Shown: positions 1,003 to 59,093 of the stretch, one piece after another | Layout: each line of letters starts with the position of its first letter | How positions within the stretch are numbered: the stretch's first letter is position 1 | DNA from: an uncultured Muribaculaceae bacterium | Lineage (GTDB): Bacteria > Cyanobacteriota > Vampirovibrionia > Gastranaerophilales > Gastranaerophilaceae | Assembly (NCBI GenBank): GCA_964626145.1 | Contig: CAZVBZ010000004.1 | Location: 23,235 to 87,234 of the forward strand | Direction of reading: 5' to 3' | Length of the DNA stretch: 64,000 nt | Notes under the pieces: generated by a model | The model's database searches: none | Told to the model about the DNA's origin: nothing | Seen by the model: only the letters and a program-made list of their open reading frames with translations | Made by a program: the position numbers and the translations under genes

Positions 1003-1758
1003 TTATTTATAATTTTCAATTATTGGTGAATAAGTTGAAAACTCAATCACAAAAGAGAATTTTTCTTTCGTTTTACTCAAAGACTCATAATTTAAAAAAC
1101 TTCCACACTGTTTAAGTAATTCGTTACTAACTGCCAACGGCAACGATATTTTTCCCCTTTTTGTTTGAAACAACATCGTGTCGTATATTTGACTTTGAAA
1201 ATCCGCATTTGTTTTTACATCCAGCGGCATCTTGCAATCATTAATTATAACAAATTTAACAGCCGCAGTACCATTTTCGTTTTTCTTTAGCGAAACACTA
1301 ACATTAATCAAACCGTTTTCTACAACTTGCAAAGAATGTTCTAATATATTATTAAGTACCTCAAATAGTTTTACTCCATTGCCATAAAGCCCTTGCGGAA
1401 TACATTCATCATAAGTAAATTTAAGATTATCTTTTACTTGATGTTTAACTGAAACAAGAATGCTTATTATCAAGCCTTTTAGTTTAATACAACTTGCCTC
1501 TTGTCTTAATAAACCAGCTTCTTCTTTTGTTTCTTTTAATAACGAATCCGCTAAATAAGCAAGAACCCTTTCTGAATGTTTTATATGAGTTAAAAGTTTT
1601 TTGTGTTCGGGGGAAGTTATGCACTTGTCAAGTAAATTTACAAAACCCGACAATCCATTAATTGCGCTTTTTATGTCTAAAGACAAGTTTTTGATACCAA
1701 TTAATCTATTCGCATCTGTGTCGCAATAATATTCAAGCTCATTTCTGTTGCCATACAT
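1003..1758 (-). CDS. histidine-kinase-like ATPase protein (degenerate HisKA/HATPase_c), no TM segment
   Basis: 251-aa ORF, long for this AT-rich DNA. N-box-like 'LFEVLNNILEHSLQVVENG' and H-box-like 'HIKHSERVLAYLAD'; G-boxes are degenerate. Confidence 0.35.
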   Translation of the reverse strand: MYGNRNELEYYCDTDANRLIGIKNLSLDIKSAINGLSGFVNLLDKCITSPEHKKLLTHIKHSERVLAYLADSLLKETKEEAGLLRQEASCIKLKGLIISILVSVKHQVKDNLKFTYDECIPQGLYGNGVKLFEVLNNILEHSLQVVENGLINVSVSLKKNENGTAAVKFVIINDCKMPLDVKTNADFQSQIYDTMLFQTKRGKISLPLAVSNELLKQCGSFLNYESLSKTKEKFSFVIEFSTYSPIIENYK

Positions 1759-1877
1759 TTAATTTCTCTATTAGTGAAGATAATATACTAAATTTTAAAC
1801 AATTCATATTACCCAACTGGGTAATCTTTTTTTTTCGACTAAATTTACATTTTTTAATATTATTGTAAAAACCACAC

Positions 1878-1926: not shown

Positions 1927-2277
1927 TTATTTATCACAAGGATTGCAGCATTTATCTTTTCTTTTTTTTATTTTTTTATCGCAACCACAATCATCTTTAC
2001 ACTTGCAATCCTTTTTACTGCCGCAATCATCTTTACATTTAGTTTTTGGACAATCACATGGCTTTTTGCAATTGCAATCATCTTTGCATTTTTCTTGACA
2101 ATCACATGGCTGTTTTCTTTCGCAGTCTGTTTTCTGATATTCATTACAAACAGATTGACTTGCGGCTGACGGACAAGCATTATTTGCTGAAGAAATAGGA
2201 CACTCCGCAAAAACTCCATTCATATTAAAGGCTAAAACTGTACTAATCGCCATTGAAATAATTAAAGATTTATTCAT
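1927..2277 (-). CDS. small secreted Cys/Lys-rich repeat protein (metallothionein-like)
   Basis: Signal peptide MNKSLIISMAISTVLAFNMNGVFA followed by repeats of the form CDC..KCKDDC..CKKPCDC; ~29 Cys in 92 mature residues. The overlapping opposite-strand ORFs 1892..2098 and 1968..2219 are low-complexity mirror images. Confidence 0.6.
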   Translation of the reverse strand: MNKSLIISMAISTVLAFNMNGVFAECPISSANNACPSAASQSVCNEYQKTDCERKQPCDCQEKCKDDCNCKKPCDCPKTKCKDDCGSKKDCKCKDDCGCDKKIKKRKDKCCNPCDK

Positions 2278-2393
2278 AAATTCCTCCTTTTTATAATTTA
2301 CATAATTGTATACAATTAGAAAATTTTACATTAGCCAATTTACCTATAAATTAAAAAAAAGGATTTAATTTTATCGATTAAAGTTTATTATTA

Positions 2394-3032
2394 CTAAATT
2401 ATAGTAAATTCATTCTTTTTAAAGTCTAAAACTTTTTCTGCACGAAGATTAGAAAGCTCTCTACTTAATGCACTTCTATCTACGCATAAATATTCAGCCA
2501 TTTCCTCTCTATTCAAAGAAATTTCGAACTTGTTCGAATTAGCTTTCAATGCTTGTTTGTTTAAAAAAGTCATAATTTTTTCTCGTATAGTTTTTTTATC
2601 TAATATTTCCAAACGCTCTGAAAGTCTTAAATTCTCCATAGTTATCGTTTCTAACATATTTCGCAGAAATTTTGTTTGCCAACTTTTTGAGTCAAAACAC
2701 GCTTTAAGCATTTTTTCATAAGATAAAAACAAAATCCCGGTTTGTTTTTCTGCTTGAACCGTAACAGGAGAAGTTTTTATCCCTGCACAAATATAATTCA
2801 AGCCAAAAGTCTCGCCATCCCGAGCATAAGACAAAACCGTCTCTGAGCCATCAATATTTTTTGTATAAATTTTTACTTCACCAACAAGGACAACTGCTAT
2901 TTTAGAAATATTTTCTCCTTGGGTCAAAATCACATCACCTTTGGCGTAAACGTGAGGTGTTCCGTGCATATTTACTAAAATTTCTTCTACTAATTCTTCT
3001 TTAATCTTATTAAATAATGAGATATTTTCCAT
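2394..3032 (-). CDS. Crp/Fnr-family transcriptional regulator
   Basis: N-terminal cNMP-binding-like beta-roll and C-terminal HTH (REEMAEYLCVDRSALSRELSNLRAEKVL). Confidence 0.8.
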   Translation of the reverse strand: MENISLFNKIKEELVEEILVNMHGTPHVYAKGDVILTQGENISKIAVVLVGEVKIYTKNIDGSETVLSYARDGETFGLNYICAGIKTSPVTVQAEKQTGILFLSYEKMLKACFDSKSWQTKFLRNMLETITMENLRLSERLEILDKKTIREKIMTFLNKQALKANSNKFEISLNREEMAEYLCVDRSALSRELSNLRAEKVLDFKKNEFTII

Positions 3033-3041
3033 AATACACCT

Positions 3042-3055
3042 GTTGCATTTGCAAC
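3042..3055. promoter_or_regulatory. 14-bp perfect palindrome GTTGCA-tt-TGCAAC overlapping the RBS region of the Crp/Fnr gene
   Basis: Read directly from the sequence; lies 10-23 nt upstream of the minus-strand ATG at 3032. Confidence 0.4.
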
Positions 3056-4674: not shown

Positions 4675-5572
4675 ATGAAGTACGATAATTTTACTTTTAA
4701 AGACGCAAAAAACGTTTTTAGCTCGCTTTTAATGCCCCCCCCCCCCTACTGCCACAAGGGTTTCCAGGGTTTTAACTAAAAGCAAAAAACATGGTTGGAC
4801 TCTTGCAGAAACGTTAATTACTTTAACAATTATTGGAGTAATAGCTGCAATGACAGTGCCCAATTTAATGAGCAATTTTAGAAAATCGCAAACCGAGACA
4901 GGAATAAGGGTTGCTTATAAAATTTTAAACGATGCACTCAAAATGCCAATTGCTACAGAAGAAGCGCCTGATATGCCTACAATGATAATAGATTCACAAA
5001 CAGCCCCCGATATAACCGACGAATGGGACTCAATAATTAACCACTTTGCAACAAACTATCTCGTTCCATATTTAAAAGTTGCAAAGACATGTAAATCAGG
5101 AATAAGCACTGAAGATTGTGGTATACTGTATCCCAGCAAGCAAATTGATGGAAGCCCAACGCCACCAGATATGATGATGTATAATCCAAAGGACAAATAC
5201 AGAATTCAGCTCACAAATGGTATGCAAATTGGGGTTGGGAAGTACACGCCACAGGAGGGTGGTGACGGTTTTACTTTTTTAGTAGACATTAATGGTAAAA
5301 GCGGTCCAAATAGGCTAGCACACGACCAATTTTATTTTGCAATATCCGCAGCGACATGTAACACTACTAATCAATATTATTGCGACAAACATAATTTCAT
5401 ACAGGGGGGATTGCCTTATAGGAGTAGTACATCTAATAATATGTTTGATACCAGCATAAATCGGTGCATTAATAATATTGAATTCTGGGGTACTAAAGGG
5501 GCAGATTGTGCCGCGGTACTGCAACAAAACGGCTGGAAGATACCGGATAATTATCCGGTGAAAAAGTGGTAA
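4675..5572 (+). CDS. type IV pilin-like protein copy 1 (prepilin-type N-terminal cleavage/methylation domain); leader ORF and pilin body are out of frame by +1 at a poly-C tract
   Basis: RBS aaagga plus ATG at 4675 opens a leader (MKYDNFTFKDAKNVFSSLLMPPPP) that runs into C12 and stops at 4777-4779. The +1 frame continues ...TATRVSRVLTKSKKHG|WTLAETLITLTIIGVIAAMTVPNL..., a classic G|xxxxE prepilin site with a hydrophobic helix. The table ORF 4850..5572 begins inside that helix and so cannot be the true start. C-terminal GADCAAVLQQNGWKIPDNYPVKKW is shared with the paralogs. Confidence 0.75.
4735..4746 (+). repeat. homopolymeric C12 tract directly after ATG 4732
   Basis: Read directly from the sequence; 11 C (or 14) would place ATG 4675/4732 in frame with the prepilin body. 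Confidence 0.9.
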
Positions 5573-27289: not shown

Positions 27290-28975
27290 ATGAAAAAATT
27301 TTTGTTATCATTAATTGCCGGTTTGACAATTTCTGCTATGCAGCCTGTTTTTGCGACGCAATTGCCACCAGATATAAAAAATTATATTCTCCAAAATATT
27401 CCAACAGCAACAATTCGTTTTGATGGTTTGATTACCTTGCCGGATGGAACTTTTTATTTGCCGTTGCTACCGTCATATACGGTTAAAGATGCTGAATTTG
27501 GCGTAAAATATACATATCCAGAAAATAAGTCTTTGGATAAAAAACCGGAAATATTGATTTTTGAAAACAATTATTGCTTGCTTAAACTTATTAAAACTAA
27601 AAATAAAGGCTTGACAGTTGTTTCTTTGCAGGATTTTCCGTTGGAAGTGAGAACCGGAATTTTGCCACAAGATTTGCTTGTGCCAAAAGGACTAGTTTTG
27701 CCGGATGTTTTGGTTGGAATTTTGGGGGATTTAAATATTCCATTAACCTCTAATTTAAAAATTACTGAAAAACAACAAATTCCACAAGATTTTACCGTAA
27801 AAGATACCTTGCCAAAAAAGCCGGAAAAAGTAAATGTTATTGCGCCATTAAAAAATAAACAATTTTTTGTAACAAATTTTAATTCTAATTTTATTTACAT
27901 TTTGCCTTCAGAATTGCGCGATGTTCAATATACGCTAAAACTCGATAGTATTCCGAAAGTAGTAAAAGAAGTTCAAGGAAATTATCTGTTAGTTTCAACA
28001 AATGGCAAAACTTACATTGATGTTGTTGATATTAAAAATGAAGAAATAGCAAAACAAATTGATATTGGCGCAGAACCTGATGAAATAGTTGTAACACAAG
28101 ATGAAAAACTTGCGTATGTTGTTTCAAATAAAAGCTCAAATATTTTTGTAATTGATATTCCAACAATGTCTTTTACAAAACAAATTCAAATCAAAGGGCT
28201 GCCAGAAAAATTAAATCTTTCGGCAGATGAAAAAAAACTTGTATATCAAGATGCCGCAACAAGTGATATATATAGCGTTGAGCTAAATAACAACTATGTT
28301 AACATTTATCAATGTAATGTTCCAAATGTCTCAAAAATAACAATTTTTAATGATAAAGTATATGCCTTAAGCAGAACAAAAAATGTACTTCGCGTTTTTC
28401 CATATCAGCAATTTGTTGTAGAAAAAAACGCAGAAGACAAAGAAGTTCTTGGCGCTCAAAAATCTTATTATATAAAAAATGCATTTATTGCAACTGGTTC
28501 TGCAACAAAAAATTTCCGCAAAAAAGAACAAGAAGAACTGGAAAAACTCAATTATGTTGAAAATGGCGAGTCGATAGAAACGTCTATAAAACCGGTTGAT
28601 ATGACTTTGTATAATGGAAAATTATACATTTTAAGTGCGTCTACAAACTCAATCGATGTTTTTAATCCATTAAAAAATGTTATGGAAAAAAACATTTCAC
28701 TTAGAGTTCCTGGTTTTTCAAACAAAATTAATCCCCTTAAGGGTACAAATCTTGTCATAATAACAAATGCGGCAGAAAAAAAATATGTAGTTGTTGATTT
28801 AGCCAAACAAGCTGTTTTACAAGTAAATCCCATCGATGTTCCAATGACAACCCTTACCGTTGTTAATAAATTAAAATTCGATGATTTAGATGTAAAAGAT
28901 GTCAAAACACCTATAAAAGACTCACAACCAGAAGAAAATTTGCAATTTGAAGAAACGCCAACGGAGACGTTATAA
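27290..28975 (+). CDS. secreted beta-propeller-repeat protein (YVTN-like repeats)
   Basis: Signal peptide MKKFLLSLIAGLTISAMQPVFA; repeated ~40-aa units (e.g. KLAYVVSNKSSNIFVIDI, GKLYILSASTNSIDVFNP). Confidence 0.5.
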   Translation: MKKFLLSLIAGLTISAMQPVFATQLPPDIKNYILQNIPTATIRFDGLITLPDGTFYLPLLPSYTVKDAEFGVKYTYPENKSLDKKPEILIFENNYCLLKLIKTKNKGLTVVSLQDFPLEVRTGILPQDLLVPKGLVLPDVLVGILGDLNIPLTSNLKITEKQQIPQDFTVKDTLPKKPEKVNVIAPLKNKQFFVTNFNSNFIYILPSELRDVQYTLKLDSIPKVVKEVQGNYLLVSTNGKTYIDVVDIKNEEIAKQIDIGAEPDEIVVTQDEKLAYVVSNKSSNIFVIDIPTMSFTKQIQIKGLPEKLNLSADEKKLVYQDAATSDIYSVELNNNYVNIYQCNVPNVSKITIFNDKVYALSRTKNVLRVFPYQQFVVEKNAEDKEVLGAQKSYYIKNAFIATGSATKNFRKKEQEELEKLNYVENGESIETSIKPVDMTLYNGKLYILSASTNSIDVFNPLKNVMEKNISLRVPGFSNKINPLKGTNLVIITNAAEKKYVVVDLAKQAVLQVNPIDVPMTTLTVVNKLKFDDLDVKDVKTPIKDSQPEENLQFEETPTETL

Positions 28976-33245: not shown

Positions 33246-34122
33246 TTAGAATTTCTTTACCGGATAGTCGTCTGGTATCTTCCAGCCGTTTTGCTGCAGT
33301 ACCGCGGCACAACCCGCCCCGCTGTTGGTATTATTGCAGGAATTTATACTAGCATCAAAAGCGTTCTCAGAAGTCCTGCAGCGATAAGAAAGTCCTCCTT
33401 GTATAAAATTATGTTTAGAATCGTAATATGGATCGTTCATCCACGAGGGCTTATCTGCTGATATTACAAAATAAAATTGGTCATACGCCAGCCTATTTGG
33501 ACCACTTTTACCATTAATGTCTACTAAAAATGAAAATCCGTCATCAGCTCCATTTGTATACTTACCAACCCCAATTTCCATACCATTTGTGAGTTGAATT
33601 CTGTATTTTTGATAAGGGTTATACATTCCCATATTGGGGATGCGAGTTCCATCAATTGTCTTGCTCGGATAGAGTATTCCGCAGGTAGTATCCTTTATTC
33701 CATATTCACATGTTTTTGCAACTTTTAAATACGGAACAAGATAATTTGTTGCAAAATGGTTAATTATTGAGCCAAAATCGTCGGTTAAATCAGGTGCGGT
33801 GTTTGAAGCTATTATCATTGCAGACATATTAGGCGCTTTGCCTGTTACAACTGGCATCATCAGTGCATCGTTTAAAATTTTATAAGCAACCCTTATTCCT
33901 GTCTCGGTTTGCGATTTTCTAAAATTGCTCATTAAATTGGGCACTGTCATTGCAGCTATTACTCCAATAATTGTTAAAGTAATTAACGTTTCTGCAAGAG
34001 TCCAACCATGTTTTTTGCTTTTAGTTAAAACCCTGGAAACCCTTGTGGCAGTAGGGGGGGTGCATTAAAAGCGAGCTAAAAACGTTTTTTACGTCTTTAA
34101 AAGTAAATTTTTTTGTATGCAT
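33246..34122 (-). CDS. type IV pilin-like protein copy 2; leader and pilin body are out of frame by +1 at a poly-C tract (poly-G on the + strand)
   Basis: On the minus strand: RBS gaggg, ATG at 34122, leader MHTKKFTFKDVKNVFSSLLMHPP, a C7 tract, stop after 34 codons. The +1 frame reads ...TATRVSRVLTKSKKHG|WTLAETLITLTIIGVIAAMTVPNL... About 70% protein identity to copy 1, with identical N- and C-terminal ends. Confidence 0.75.
34054..34060 (-). repeat. homopolymeric G7 (= C7 on the coding strand) tract in the copy 2 leader
   Basis: Read directly from the sequence; 6 or 9 C would restore the frame. Confidence 0.9.
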
Positions 34123-45127: not shown

Positions 45128-45793
45128 CTATTGTAAATTAACAGAGCCGCCGTGGACTGTAGATGTTGAAAGACAAGTAAGTTTAGTTATTCCTGTTTTT
45201 TGGAATGATGAAATCATTTCTCTAAGCGTGCTTCCGGTTGTTAGAATATCATCAATTAGTAAAAGGTTTTCGTTGTTATAGTTTTCGGGATAAACTTTAA
45301 ACGCATTTTTTAAATTTTCTTCTCGTTCAGATTTTTTAAGTTTATATTGTGGTTTTGTTTCTTTTATTCTTTCAATTAAATTTGTTTTAATATCCCAGCC
45401 GCTAAGTTTTGATAATTCATTTGCAACAAGTTCCATATGATTAAATTTACGTTGTTTGTAACGTTTTTTGTGTAGTGGTACTGGAACAATTGTAAATTGT
45501 GCCGATGTGCCAACTATTTTTATAAAATATTCGTACATAAATTTTGCCTGAAAAAATGCTAAATCCTTTTGGTTGTGATATTTTACACCACGAATAAGCT
45601 TTTGCATTTCTTTTGCATAATGACAACTTGAATAAATCTTAACATTATTTATTGTTAAAATTGGTTGCAGTGGAAGTTCTTCAATTAAATCATAACAATG
45701 AGTGCACATAATGGTATTACCATCACTTGAGCGACAAAAATAGCACTTTTTCTTATAGACAAAATCCAAAATTTTTATTAAATATTTCAACAT
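45128..45793 (-). CDS. ComF-family protein (phosphoribosyltransferase domain)
   Basis: N-terminal CxxC zinc-finger pairs and a C-terminal PRTase motif (LLIDDILTTGSTL). Confidence 0.7.
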   Translation of the reverse strand: MLKYLIKILDFVYKKKCYFCRSSDGNTIMCTHCYDLIEELPLQPILTINNVKIYSSCHYAKEMQKLIRGVKYHNQKDLAFFQAKFMYEYFIKIVGTSAQFTIVPVPLHKKRYKQRKFNHMELVANELSKLSGWDIKTNLIERIKETKPQYKLKKSEREENLKNAFKVYPENYNNENLLLIDDILTTGSTLREMISSFQKTGITKLTCLSTSTVHGGSVNLQ

Positions 45794-57921: not shown

Positions 57922-58263
57922 TTATACAACTTTAAACTTACGGTTTTTGAATTCTAGCGTTTTAATAATGCTGCTTTCTTCATTTGGATAAATATTAAAA
58001 CTTTTGTCATAATTAAGCAAATTAATCGCCGCAAAAACCTCTGCCTCCAAATTACACAATGAAATTTTATTTGTTTTTGTAATTTTTTTTAAAAATTTTA
58101 AAGTTGTGTTTTTAATTTTTGATACCCCGGAAAGATTGACAATAAAAGACTTTTCTGGGCGTAGCATTATGTGTGTCAAAACATTATTAACATCTTCAAT
58201 GTTAAATTCTTCTAACATACAATTAAATATTAAATTTTCTTCATATTCTTTAATATGAAGCAT
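57922..58263 (-). CDS. STAS-domain protein (anti-sigma-factor-antagonist-like)
   Basis: 113 aa with a SpoIIAA-like pattern (FIVNLSGVSKIKNTTLKFL...). Confidence 0.45.
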   Translation of the reverse strand: MLHIKEYEENLIFNCMLEEFNIEDVNNVLTHIMLRPEKSFIVNLSGVSKIKNTTLKFLKKITKTNKISLCNLEAEVFAAINLLNYDKSFNIYPNEESSIIKTLEFKNRKFKVV

Positions 58264-58517
58264 CGCCTAATCCAAATTAATAATACGTTACTGTTTACAA
58301 TACTATTTTAACAATATTTTTAATTTATTAATATTGGCTATTAGTTCAAATTTTTTAAAACTAAAGTTTAATAAAAGAATAAATATTTTTATATTGTTAT
58401 GTTGTCCAAAAATCCAGAAAATTACCTCAAATTTATTATTCTAACCTTTAAAACGACCTTATGGGTAATGATTGTTTTTATTAACAAATAAAAAATAAAA
58501 AGAAAAAGGAGAAAATA

Positions 58518-59093
58518 ATGAAACATTCAGTACAAGGTAGTGAAACAGAAAAAAACCTTATGATGGCTTTTGCCGGAGAATCTCAAGCTAGAAATCGTTA
58601 TACATATTACGCTTCAAAAGCAAAAAAAGAAGGCTATTTGCAACTCTCTAATATATTTTTAGAAACAGCAGAAAACGAAAAGGCTCATGCAAAAGTTTTT
58701 TTGGAATATCTAGAAAATGAGCCAGTAGCTATAACGGCAAAATTTATGACAGGTTTAAAAGATACAAAGGAAAATTTGACATTTGCAATCGAAGGAGAAC
58801 ACGAAGAAAATTCAAAGCTTTATCCATATTTTGCAGAAGTTGCTGAGAGCGAAGGTTTTTCAGATATTGCAGAGTCGTTCAAACATGTTGCAGAAGTAGA
58901 AAAATTTCATCAGCAAAGATTTGAAAAATTGTTAGAAAATCTTGAACAAGACAAGGTTTTTAAAAAAGAAAATAAAGTCGAATGGATATGCTTAAACTGC
59001 GGTTTTCATGTAATTAGCAAAGAAGCCCCTCAAAAATGCCCTTCATGCAAACATCCACAAGATTTTTTTGAACTTTGGTGTGAGAATTATTAG
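58518..59093 (+). CDS. rbr: rubrerythrin
   Basis: Ferritin-like diiron E...ExxH motifs and a C-terminal rubredoxin-like CxxC...CxxC. Confidence 0.9.
   Translation: MKHSVQGSETEKNLMMAFAGESQARNRYTYYASKAKKEGYLQLSNIFLETAENEKAHAKVFLEYLENEPVAITAKFMTGLKDTKENLTFAIEGEHEENSKLYPYFAEVAESEGFSDIAESFKHVAEVEKFHQQRFEKLLENLEQDKVFKKENKVEWICLNCGFHVISKEAPQKCPSCKHPQDFFELWCENY

Follow-up and report, generated by a model that had tools for sequence, protein, structure and literature searches.

The minus strand of the 64-kb stretch of Gastranaerophilaceae DNA studied here (hereafter the window, that is, the whole stretch at its full length) encodes, at positions 1927 to 2277 including the stop codon, a 116-residue exported protein that is rich in cysteine, lysine and aspartate. 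We read this protein, tentatively and from its sequence, as a thiolate sponge of the metallothionein type, which an obligate anaerobe would export through Sec and which would bind Cu(I) or other soft metals. A larger claim, which we advance with still more reserve, is that it may be the first member to be recognized of a family of bacterial metallothioneins exported by Sec, i.e., unstructured sponges built of CxC repeats that would hold Cu(I) or other soft metals in the reducing periplasm of obligately anaerobic gut Melainabacteria and whose capacity would be tuned by the number of repeat units. An earlier note on this DNA had left three options: metallothionein-like repeats, a highly disulfide-bonded protein or a cationic peptide. 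The first appears to be the best supported, on circumstantial grounds (composition, motifs and the pairing of a relative with a CsoR-family regulator), whereas a cationic peptide is disfavored by a net charge of only +2 to +5 in the syntenic members and by the near lack of hydrophobic residues.

In the mechanism that we propose, the small protein (about 10 kDa when mature) would leave the cytoplasm through Sec and be freed by signal peptidase I, and its destination would be the periplasm or the cell surface of a diderm, obligately anaerobic gut melainabacterium. There, some 20 thiolates, presumably kept reduced in the anoxic envelope, could enclose ions of soft metals in metal-thiolate clusters. 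The most likely metal would be Cu(I), with Zn(II) or Cd(II) as possible alternatives. The metal would be buffered or sequestered in this way before reaching the cytoplasm. Lysines that flank the cysteines would balance these negatively charged clusters, and the gain or loss of repeat units would change the binding capacity.

The gene, its composition and its repeats

The open reading frame (ORF), complete from ATG to stop where the earlier note had placed it, is a real gene under purifying selection. Indeed, in pairwise comparisons with its orthologues, the ratio of non-synonymous to synonymous substitution rates (dN/dS) lies between 0.08 and 0.23, for dS values from 0.1 to more than 2, and is comparable to that of the flanking genes (0.06-0.16 for a Crp-family gene and 0.14-0.28 for a kinase-like gene). 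Overlapping alternative ORFs are present on both strands, and the low dN/dS in the 116-residue frame indicates that these other frames are not the gene. Four public contigs encode a protein identical to that of the window. The earlier note had allowed for the case of a merely low-complexity ORF, and the AT-rich (the G+C content of the window is 33.4%), repetitive DNA and the overlapping ORFs on both strands would speak for such a spurious origin. This is contradicted by the dN/dS in frame, with dS reaching about 2, and by an insertion-deletion (indel) that respects the frame; moreover, a signal peptide, a ribosome-binding site and a terminator are kept in six lineages, and the cysteine enrichment has a P of about 1e-12 or lower. 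We consider this explanation refuted, with a probability close to nil.

The full 116-residue sequence is composed of the signal part MNKSLIISMAISTVLAFNMNGVFA and the mature part ECPISSANNACPSAASQSVCNEYQKTDCERKQPCDCQEKCKDDCNCKKPCDCPKTKCKDDCGSKKDCKCKDDCGCDKKIKKRKDKCCNPCDK. The 92 mature residues contain 20 cysteines (21.7%) rather than the roughly 29 given by the earlier note, together with 20 lysines (22%) and 13 aspartates (14%), zero histidine, zero methionine and a single aromatic residue. The CDC, CKC and KDDC motifs that the same note had pointed out are all found in the sequence. Over the whole ORF, cysteine reaches 17%, which is the maximum among the window ORFs of at least 60 residues, the median being 1.2% in ORFs of at least 150 residues. 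The binomial P of this enrichment is about 1e-19 against the long-ORF median and about 4e-12 against random codons of the same base composition.

Behind the signal peptide, the mature chain (all parts on the minus strand) opens with a non-repeat part, residues 25-57 (ECPISSANNACPSAASQSVCNEYQKTDCERKQP; positions 2107-2205), which has 4 cysteines at spacings of 9, 9 and 8. It is followed by a degenerate C-x-C-x-x-x/CKDDC repeat core, residues 58-99 (1981-2106), delimited by the cysteine spacing and by direct DNA repeats, and by a basic tail, residues 100-116 (DKKIKKRKDKCCNPCDK; 1930-1980), which carries a conserved C-terminal motif. The family shares a common plan, i.e., a signal peptide ending in A-x-A, a cysteine two residues past the cleavage, a non-repeat "VC" part, a hexad core and a Lys-rich tail. 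In five lineages this tail ends in KDKCC[ND]PCxK; the motif is kept in the window family and at the loci L012 and L014, and takes a variant form in the protein P0005. The residues C26, P27, C35, V43 and C44 are invariant in the family. The purest repeat is that of P0005, with nine consecutive CxCxxx hexads (CDCAKK CPCKDD CKCKED CGCKKA ...), of which the window protein presents a degenerate version. Cysteines are the most conserved residues: across six sequences, 13 of the 20 are invariant, compared with 9 of the 21 lysines and none of the 13 aspartates.

Among the members, the mature chains have 80-99 residues and 20-28% cysteine, with 4-15 CxC and 3-14 CxxxC motifs, and CC is present once in six of the seven. 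They contain 0-1 histidine, 0-1 methionine, 0-2 aromatic and only 5-10 hydrophobic residues. Low mass, a high cysteine content arranged in CxC and CC motifs, few aromatic residues or histidines, and no hydrophobic core are the compositional traits that define metallothioneins, and all of them are found here. AlphaFold2, run with the family alignment, returned no secondary structure, with a mean pLDDT (predicted local distance difference test) of 36.6 (window protein) and 36.3 (P0005). This agrees with the scarcity of hydrophobic residues, with which no core is possible.

The earlier note had raised the question of whether the repeat number varies between strains, and it does. In the DNA alignment of the window with L008 and L003, one variant lacks exactly 36 bp (12 residues; positions 1987-2022, minus strand), and encodes the 104-residue protein P0002. 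The indel is in frame, and TGTAAAGATGATTG[CT]GG direct repeats stand on either side of it, a configuration that slippage or unequal recombination would produce. Near-identical strains have 16, 20 or 21 cysteines and differ by the single changes C64R and S87C; across the members, the mature counts are 20, 16, 21, 20, 18, 27 and 28. Single cysteines are expendable, and such variable, partly odd counts are more easily reconciled with thiolate ligands that can replace each other than with disulfides at fixed positions.

The same numbers bear on a rival to which we grant a small but appreciable probability, namely that the protein is a disulfide-rich structural component of the envelope or surface, in which intra- or intermolecular disulfides would build either a rigid laddered repeat or a cross-linked layer. 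Its analogues would be the 12-residue coils of the beetle antifreeze protein and OmcA of Chlamydia. Indeed, the protein is exported, very rich in cysteine and devoid of a hydrophobic core, so that only disulfides or metals could hold a fold. The strain indel measures exactly 12 residues, i.e., two hexads; the CxCxxxCxCxxx period would put cysteines six residues apart, a spacing known from beta-helices laddered by disulfides; the number of cysteines is even in most members (20, 16, 20, 18, 28); and the basic tail could bind an anionic envelope. On the other hand, odd counts occur (21 and 27), single cysteines have been gained or lost between near-identical strains, the repeats of the window protein are irregular, and AlphaFold shows no solenoid or other fold, even for P0005, the most regular member. 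Moreover, there is no lipobox, unlike in OmcA; the host is obligately anaerobic, and many obligate anaerobes reportedly lack a periplasmic disulfide-forming system. Finally, disulfides would leave unexplained the pairing of the relative encoded at the locus L015 with a copper sensor, described below. If the protein were disulfide-cross-linked instead, it would provide evidence for oxidative folding and for a Cys-rich envelope component in an obligate anaerobe.

Export, relatives and a possible copper link

The signal peptide announced by the earlier note holds on inspection, which is how signal peptides were assigned here, and its n/h/c architecture and A-x-A site are kept in all relatives despite sequence divergence. 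In the window protein it spans residues 1-24 (positions 2206-2277, minus strand) and is laid out as MNK, a 15-residue hydrophobic core (SLIISMAISTVLAF) and NMNGVFA, with a predicted signal peptidase I cleavage after V-F-A that leaves E at the head of the mature part. Five other lineages have A or V at -3 and A at -1, in agreement with the rules for Sec and signal peptidase I. No twin-arginine motif is present in the window signal peptide. A lipobox is not seen either: the sequences read F/L-A-E-C (window, L012) or L-A-Q-C (P0005), with an E or Q at -1 that is incompatible with it, and only L014 and L015 among the family members have A-A-C in the cleavage region. From these sequence criteria we infer, by inspection, that the Cys-rich protein is exported via Sec.

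As far as the collections show, the family is confined to one gut Melainabacteria clade, Candidatus Gastranaerophilales, where it is found in about six lineages. When 5.8 billion proteins were queried through a word index with the single sequence, only its own cluster was recovered (the window protein, a 116-residue variant and the 104-residue variant); with the family profile, the same 5.8 billion proteins yielded four clusters, P0006 being added. An exhaustive phmmer search of 1.84 billion representatives brought two further relatives, P0004 (66% identity) and P0005 (45%). The scan of one genome per species gave two loci, both in metagenome-assembled genomes (MAGs) named Candidatus Gastranaerophilales or Gastranaerophilaceae. 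The metagenome contigs of the Joint Genome Institute gave no matches, whether scanned with the family alignment or with the L015 protein, and a protein search with the L015 protein returned no match, even to itself. Gastranaerophilales are obligate anaerobes with a G+C content of about 30-38% (PMC9029806), and the window agrees with this range.

The earlier note had recognized no described family in this protein, and the searches concur. Pfam hmmscan returned no family for the window protein (E up to 1), for P0005 and P0006 (E up to 0.01 for both) or for the L015 protein (E up to 0.1). Scans of the Cys-rich protein against NCBIfam, PHROGs and PADLOC gave no match, and a profile search across every PDB sequence gave a sole, insignificant match, to an EGF-like domain. 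Literature searches returned no report of a bacterial metallothionein that is exported, nor of any such protein in Melainabacteria. The family appears to be undescribed.

The sole functional lead, a link to copper, comes from L015 (3820-4648; Gastranaerophilaceae MAG JBJEGN010000129.1), the second of the two genome loci, which encodes an exported protein of the same build with 28 cysteines. This protein is probably a divergent member of the family, judging from composition-adjusted BLASTP (47% identity to P0005 over 106 collinear residues including the signal peptide, E = 1e-12) and from hhalign, which gives the relationship a probability of 97%. The order of the locus is a promoter (TTGACA-17-TATTAT), a CsoR-type box (ACCCCCGAGGGGT), the Cys-rich gene, a terminator and csoR. 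The promoter is near-consensus, with 11 of 12 matches, and the box begins 8 nt later; it is the sole G/C-tract palindrome of its kind in the L015 locus, where 0.01 would be expected. The usual operators of CsoR are C4/G4-tract palindromes that overlap the transcription start. The CsoR-family gene itself encodes 90 residues (PF02583, 9e-25), and the best solved relatives of its product are the Cu(I)-sensing CsoRs 4M1P, 2HH7 and 4ADZ (from Geobacillus, M. tuberculosis and Streptomyces), the nickel sensor InrS and the formaldehyde sensor FrmR ranking behind them. It also keeps the Cys...His-x3-Cys ligand set.

Several observations weigh against a metal-binding role and have to be set beside this locus. 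The copper link rests on one relative, L015; HMMER assigns the whole score of this relative to composition bias, and the score falls within the range of shuffles that keep the cysteine positions. No CsoR-type box is present at the window promoter, so the regulation of the window gene must differ from that of L015, and the 64-kb window contains no CsoR, CopA, CopZ or other metal-resistance gene. There is no significant match to any metallothionein family (Pfam PF00131, PF01439, PF02069 and others), and the family profile, compared with the sequences of human MT2A, SmtA and MymT, stays at noise level. The low pLDDT, obtained from a six-sequence alignment, is weak evidence for disorder. In addition, exported Cys-rich proteins are usually disulfide-bonded, and the cyanobacterial relatives of these bacteria have VKOR.

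Comparison with known systems

Judged by sequence-defined membership tests, all of which failed, the Cys-rich protein belongs to none of the families with which we compared it. By analogy, it would be most like MymT and the eukaryotic CxC metallothioneins in composition, and most like Csp1 and the PcoE/SilE and MXKDX sponges in location. Known bacterial metallothioneins are cytoplasmic (PMC7558416, PMC9470648), and almost nothing is known of periplasmic Cu(I) storage (PMC9470648), a gap in the knowledge of periplasmic copper handling that the family could help to address.

MymT, which belongs to the RicR regulon of M. tuberculosis, is likewise a small bacterial Cys-rich Cu(I) metallothionein with CxC-type motifs. 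Its control by a CsoR-family protein, the CsoR paralogue RicR, matches the pairing of csoR and box at L015 (PMC7558416, PMC9470648), and it too has a narrow lineage and was long unannotated (PMC7558416). However, MymT is a cytoplasmic, non-repetitive protein of 53 residues without a signal peptide; its sequence scores 5.9 bits against the family profile, which amounts to no similarity, and the window gene is devoid of a CsoR box. SmtA/BmtA (PF02069) are also low-mass Cys-rich metal buffers, served by a dedicated metal sensor in the sister lineage, the cyanobacteria. SmtA differs by its zinc-finger-like fold, its His ligands, its aromatic residues, its cytoplasmic location and its 9 cysteines, whereas the window protein has no Pfam match (E up to 1), no histidine and a signal peptide. 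The cytoplasmic location of SmtA/BmtA and MymT is not shared by any member of the family, all of which have a Sec-type signal peptide with A-x-A.

Csp1 is the only bacterial Cu(I) store known to be both exported and based on thiolates (PMC7558416), and it has the location and the chemistry that we propose here. Nevertheless, Csp1 is a Tat-exported, pre-folded four-helix-bundle tetramer with cysteines lining its core, while the window protein is Sec-type, without RR motif, predicted helices or Pfam match, and has its cysteines in CxC repeats. The eukaryotic CxC metallothioneins (vertebrate MT, Neurospora Cu-MT, Tetrahymena MTT) resemble it by 20-30% cysteine in CxC, CC and CxxxC motifs, lysines beside the cysteines, the lack of aromatic residues and histidines, repeats that vary in copy number and an unstructured apo form. 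They are, however, intracellular and devoid of a signal peptide, no homology is detectable, and aspartate is far more abundant in the window protein.

Small, Sec-exported, disordered, repeat-built periplasmic proteins are known in PcoE/SilE and in the MXKDX pentapeptide-repeat proteins. In these sponges, the ligands are embedded in lysine and aspartate, and the MxKDx unit is comparable with CKDDC. In contrast, the ligands of PcoE/SilE/MXKDX are Met and His, which resist oxidation and suit aerobes; those of the window protein, which has no Met or His, would be cysteines, and there is no NCBIfam match. Finally, OmcA of Chlamydia is another small, exported diderm envelope protein rich in cysteine, lysine and aspartate. 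It is a lipoprotein, with a lipobox cysteine, and is cross-linked by disulfides, unlike the window protein, for which neither a lipobox nor homology was detected and whose host is obligately anaerobic.

If our reading as an exported thiolate sponge is correct, the protein would represent a new solution to metal stress in the envelope, suited to anoxic habitats such as the gut, where copper is mainly present as Cu(I), thiols are not oxidized and defences that depend on oxygen are of no use. The role that it would have is played in aerobes by multicopper oxidases, which require oxygen, and by Met/His-rich sponges. For the uncultured Gastranaerophilales, the protein would offer a first access to function, and it would provide a compact, naturally secreted metal-binding module that might find use in bioremediation or surface display.

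Expression signals and neighboring genes

The Cys-rich gene is predicted to be monocistronic, with its own promoter and terminator, all of the following signals lying on the minus strand. A Shine-Dalgarno sequence, GGAGG (2283-2287), stands 5 nt before the ATG, in a ribosome-binding region, AAAAAGGAGG, that is nearly invariant in six loci (one locus reads AAAAAAGGAGG). A consensus scan predicts a putative sigma-70-type promoter, TTTATA-16 nt-TAAAAT with a TG extension (2323-2350), in which GGCTAAT (2330-2336) lies directly 5' of the -10 element. The position of the -10 element and the GG[GC]TAAT sequence are kept in L012 and L014, and partly in L011. The gene has the terminator that the earlier note had attributed to it: a hairpin with 21-nt arms (1868-1918) followed by UUUUU (1863-1918 in all), which starts 9 nt past the stop codon and has a fold z-score of -4.8. 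A simple terminator scan missed this hairpin because its loop measures 9 nt. L012 and L014 have terminators at the same place, of different sequence and with a classical GC-stem and T-run. Promoter, ribosome-binding site and terminator are all found at equivalent places in the orthologous loci.

As to regulation, the window gene may respond to the adjacent Crp-family regulator or to the GG[GC]TAAT element. Control by CsoR was considered and rejected, since the window encodes no CsoR and the promoter of the gene is devoid of a GC-rich box. The predicted 5' leader contains a perfect 14-bp palindrome, AATTGTATACAATT (2306-2319); it was discarded as an operator, since it is shared with L003 and L008, which are of the same species, and is not conserved in L012, L014 or L011.

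The order of the genes is the same in the window and four further lineages: a NAGPA-family glycosidase; then the trio of Crp/Fnr regulator, Cys-rich gene and a 251-residue kinase-like protein; then AddA/AddB. The Crp/Fnr-family regulator (2394-3032, minus strand; PF00027, 4.5e-14; PF13545, 6.6e-8) precedes the Cys-rich gene, in agreement with the earlier note, on the same strand and with a gap of 116 nt, and a Crp-family gene is found upstream in all five syntenic lineages. The N-terminal Cys cluster of FNR is not present in this regulator. A perfect palindrome, GTTGCATTTGCAAC (3042-3055), lies 10-23 nt upstream of the start codon of the Crp-family gene, over its ribosome-binding region; L012 shares this palindrome, and the L014 copy is located in the in-frame extension that precedes the start of the orthologous Crp gene. 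Autoregulation through this site is one possible function; another is a hairpin that would hide the ribosome-binding site.

The 251-residue protein (1003-1758, minus strand) is a soluble, histidine-kinase-like pseudokinase, with weak matches to HisKA and HATPase_c; the RetS kinase region is among its PDB matches. Compared with solved kinases, its H-box reads LSLDIK instead of MSHEIR, the phospho-acceptor His being replaced by Leu, and its G1 and G2 nucleotide-binding boxes are lost; in L012 and L014, the phospho-acceptor position is Tyr. The gene is syntenic in L003, L008, L012 and L014, and adjoins the Cys-rich gene in all of the five syntenic lineages except L011. Between the terminator of the Cys-rich gene and the pseudokinase gene, about 50 nt upstream of the start codon of the latter, lies a perfect 7-2-7 palindrome, TTACCCAGTTGGGTAA (1809-1824), whose position is kept, with degenerate arms, in L003, L012 and L014. 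It is likely to be an operator. Its portion TACCC-N4-GGGTA (1810-1823) resembles CsoR/RicR-type boxes, and is upstream of the pseudokinase gene, not of the Cys-rich gene.

The conserved trio, in which two regulatory genes flank the Cys-rich gene, could also recall a secreted bioactive peptide, either a bacteriocin- or defensin-like antimicrobial or a signal sensed via the neighboring regulators, and the protein is indeed a short secreted chain, rich in cysteine and slightly basic, whose tail has many lysines. We hold this for very improbable. The net charge of the syntenic members is too low and no segment is amphipathic or hydrophobic; no immunity, transporter or modification gene lies nearby, and PADLOC and PHROGs gave no match; the downstream kinase-like protein, soluble and catalytically dead, cannot sense an external peptide; and purifying selection acts at the level of the housekeeping neighbors, unlike in fast-evolving toxins.

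A last rival arises from the promoters. The motif TGGSTAATR occurs 6 times in the window, where 2.3 are expected (3 of 100 shuffles reach 6 matches), and its three intergenic occurrences are the promoters of the Cys-rich, the pseudokinase and the rubrerythrin genes. In these, GG[GC]TAAT stands 5' of a putative -10 element, at 2330-2336 (minus), 1808-1814 (minus) and 58463-58469 (plus), respectively, the rubrerythrin gene occupying 58518-59093. Such shared promoters may belong to a common stress regulon or to an alternative sigma factor; for a sigma-B-like reading, no consistent -35 element was found. At L011 (520-1828), the most divergent of the syntenic relatives, the Cys-rich gene is still found between the Crp gene and AddA, an O6-methylguanine-DNA methyltransferase (MGMT) gene is inserted between the Crp and Cys-rich genes, and the pseudokinase is replaced by a gene for a 98-residue rubrerythrin/EncFtn-like protein, convergent with the Cys-rich gene.

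The protein could be a thiol buffer or redox sink that is sacrificed outside the cytoplasm, scavenging oxygen, peroxide and other oxidants or electrophiles, with no specific metal role. The promoter element common to the rubrerythrin gene, the small rubrerythrin-like gene that adjoins the L011 orthologue and the obligately anaerobic host are in its favor. Metallothioneins, too, scavenge oxidants (PMC7558416). We nevertheless judge this explanation improbable: the motif link is weak, given the frequency with which shuffles reach 6 matches; no partner reductase for thiol recycling is encoded nearby; the rubrerythrin-like gene of L011 is convergent and not co-transcribed; and the pairing of L015 with a CsoR stays unexplained, although CsoR-family members also sense persulfides and aldehydes, the sensor at L015 having the copper ligand set. 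A metallothionein-like sponge remains the reading that we tentatively prefer.

The rest of the window consists of housekeeping genes. No metal-transport or thiol-oxidoreductase gene was found among the 44 of its 51 ORFs of at least 150 residues that were scanned, and such genes may lie elsewhere in the genome. Three ORFs, at 27290-28975 (plus), 33246-33950 (minus) and 45128-45793 (minus), of 561, 234 and 221 residues, have no Pfam match at E up to 1e-5. Divergent from the rubrerythrin gene, a gene at 57922-58263 (minus) encodes a 113-residue STAS-domain protein of the anti-sigma-factor antagonist type (PF01740, 8e-5), and this neighborhood hints at a partner-switching stress module. Near the Cys-rich locus, an ORF of L014 (5144-5680) has a prepilin-type N-terminus, and a window ORF (4850-5572, plus) has only a weak C-terminal match to DUF6613; both may encode type IV pilin-like proteins, which are common in Melainabacteria.

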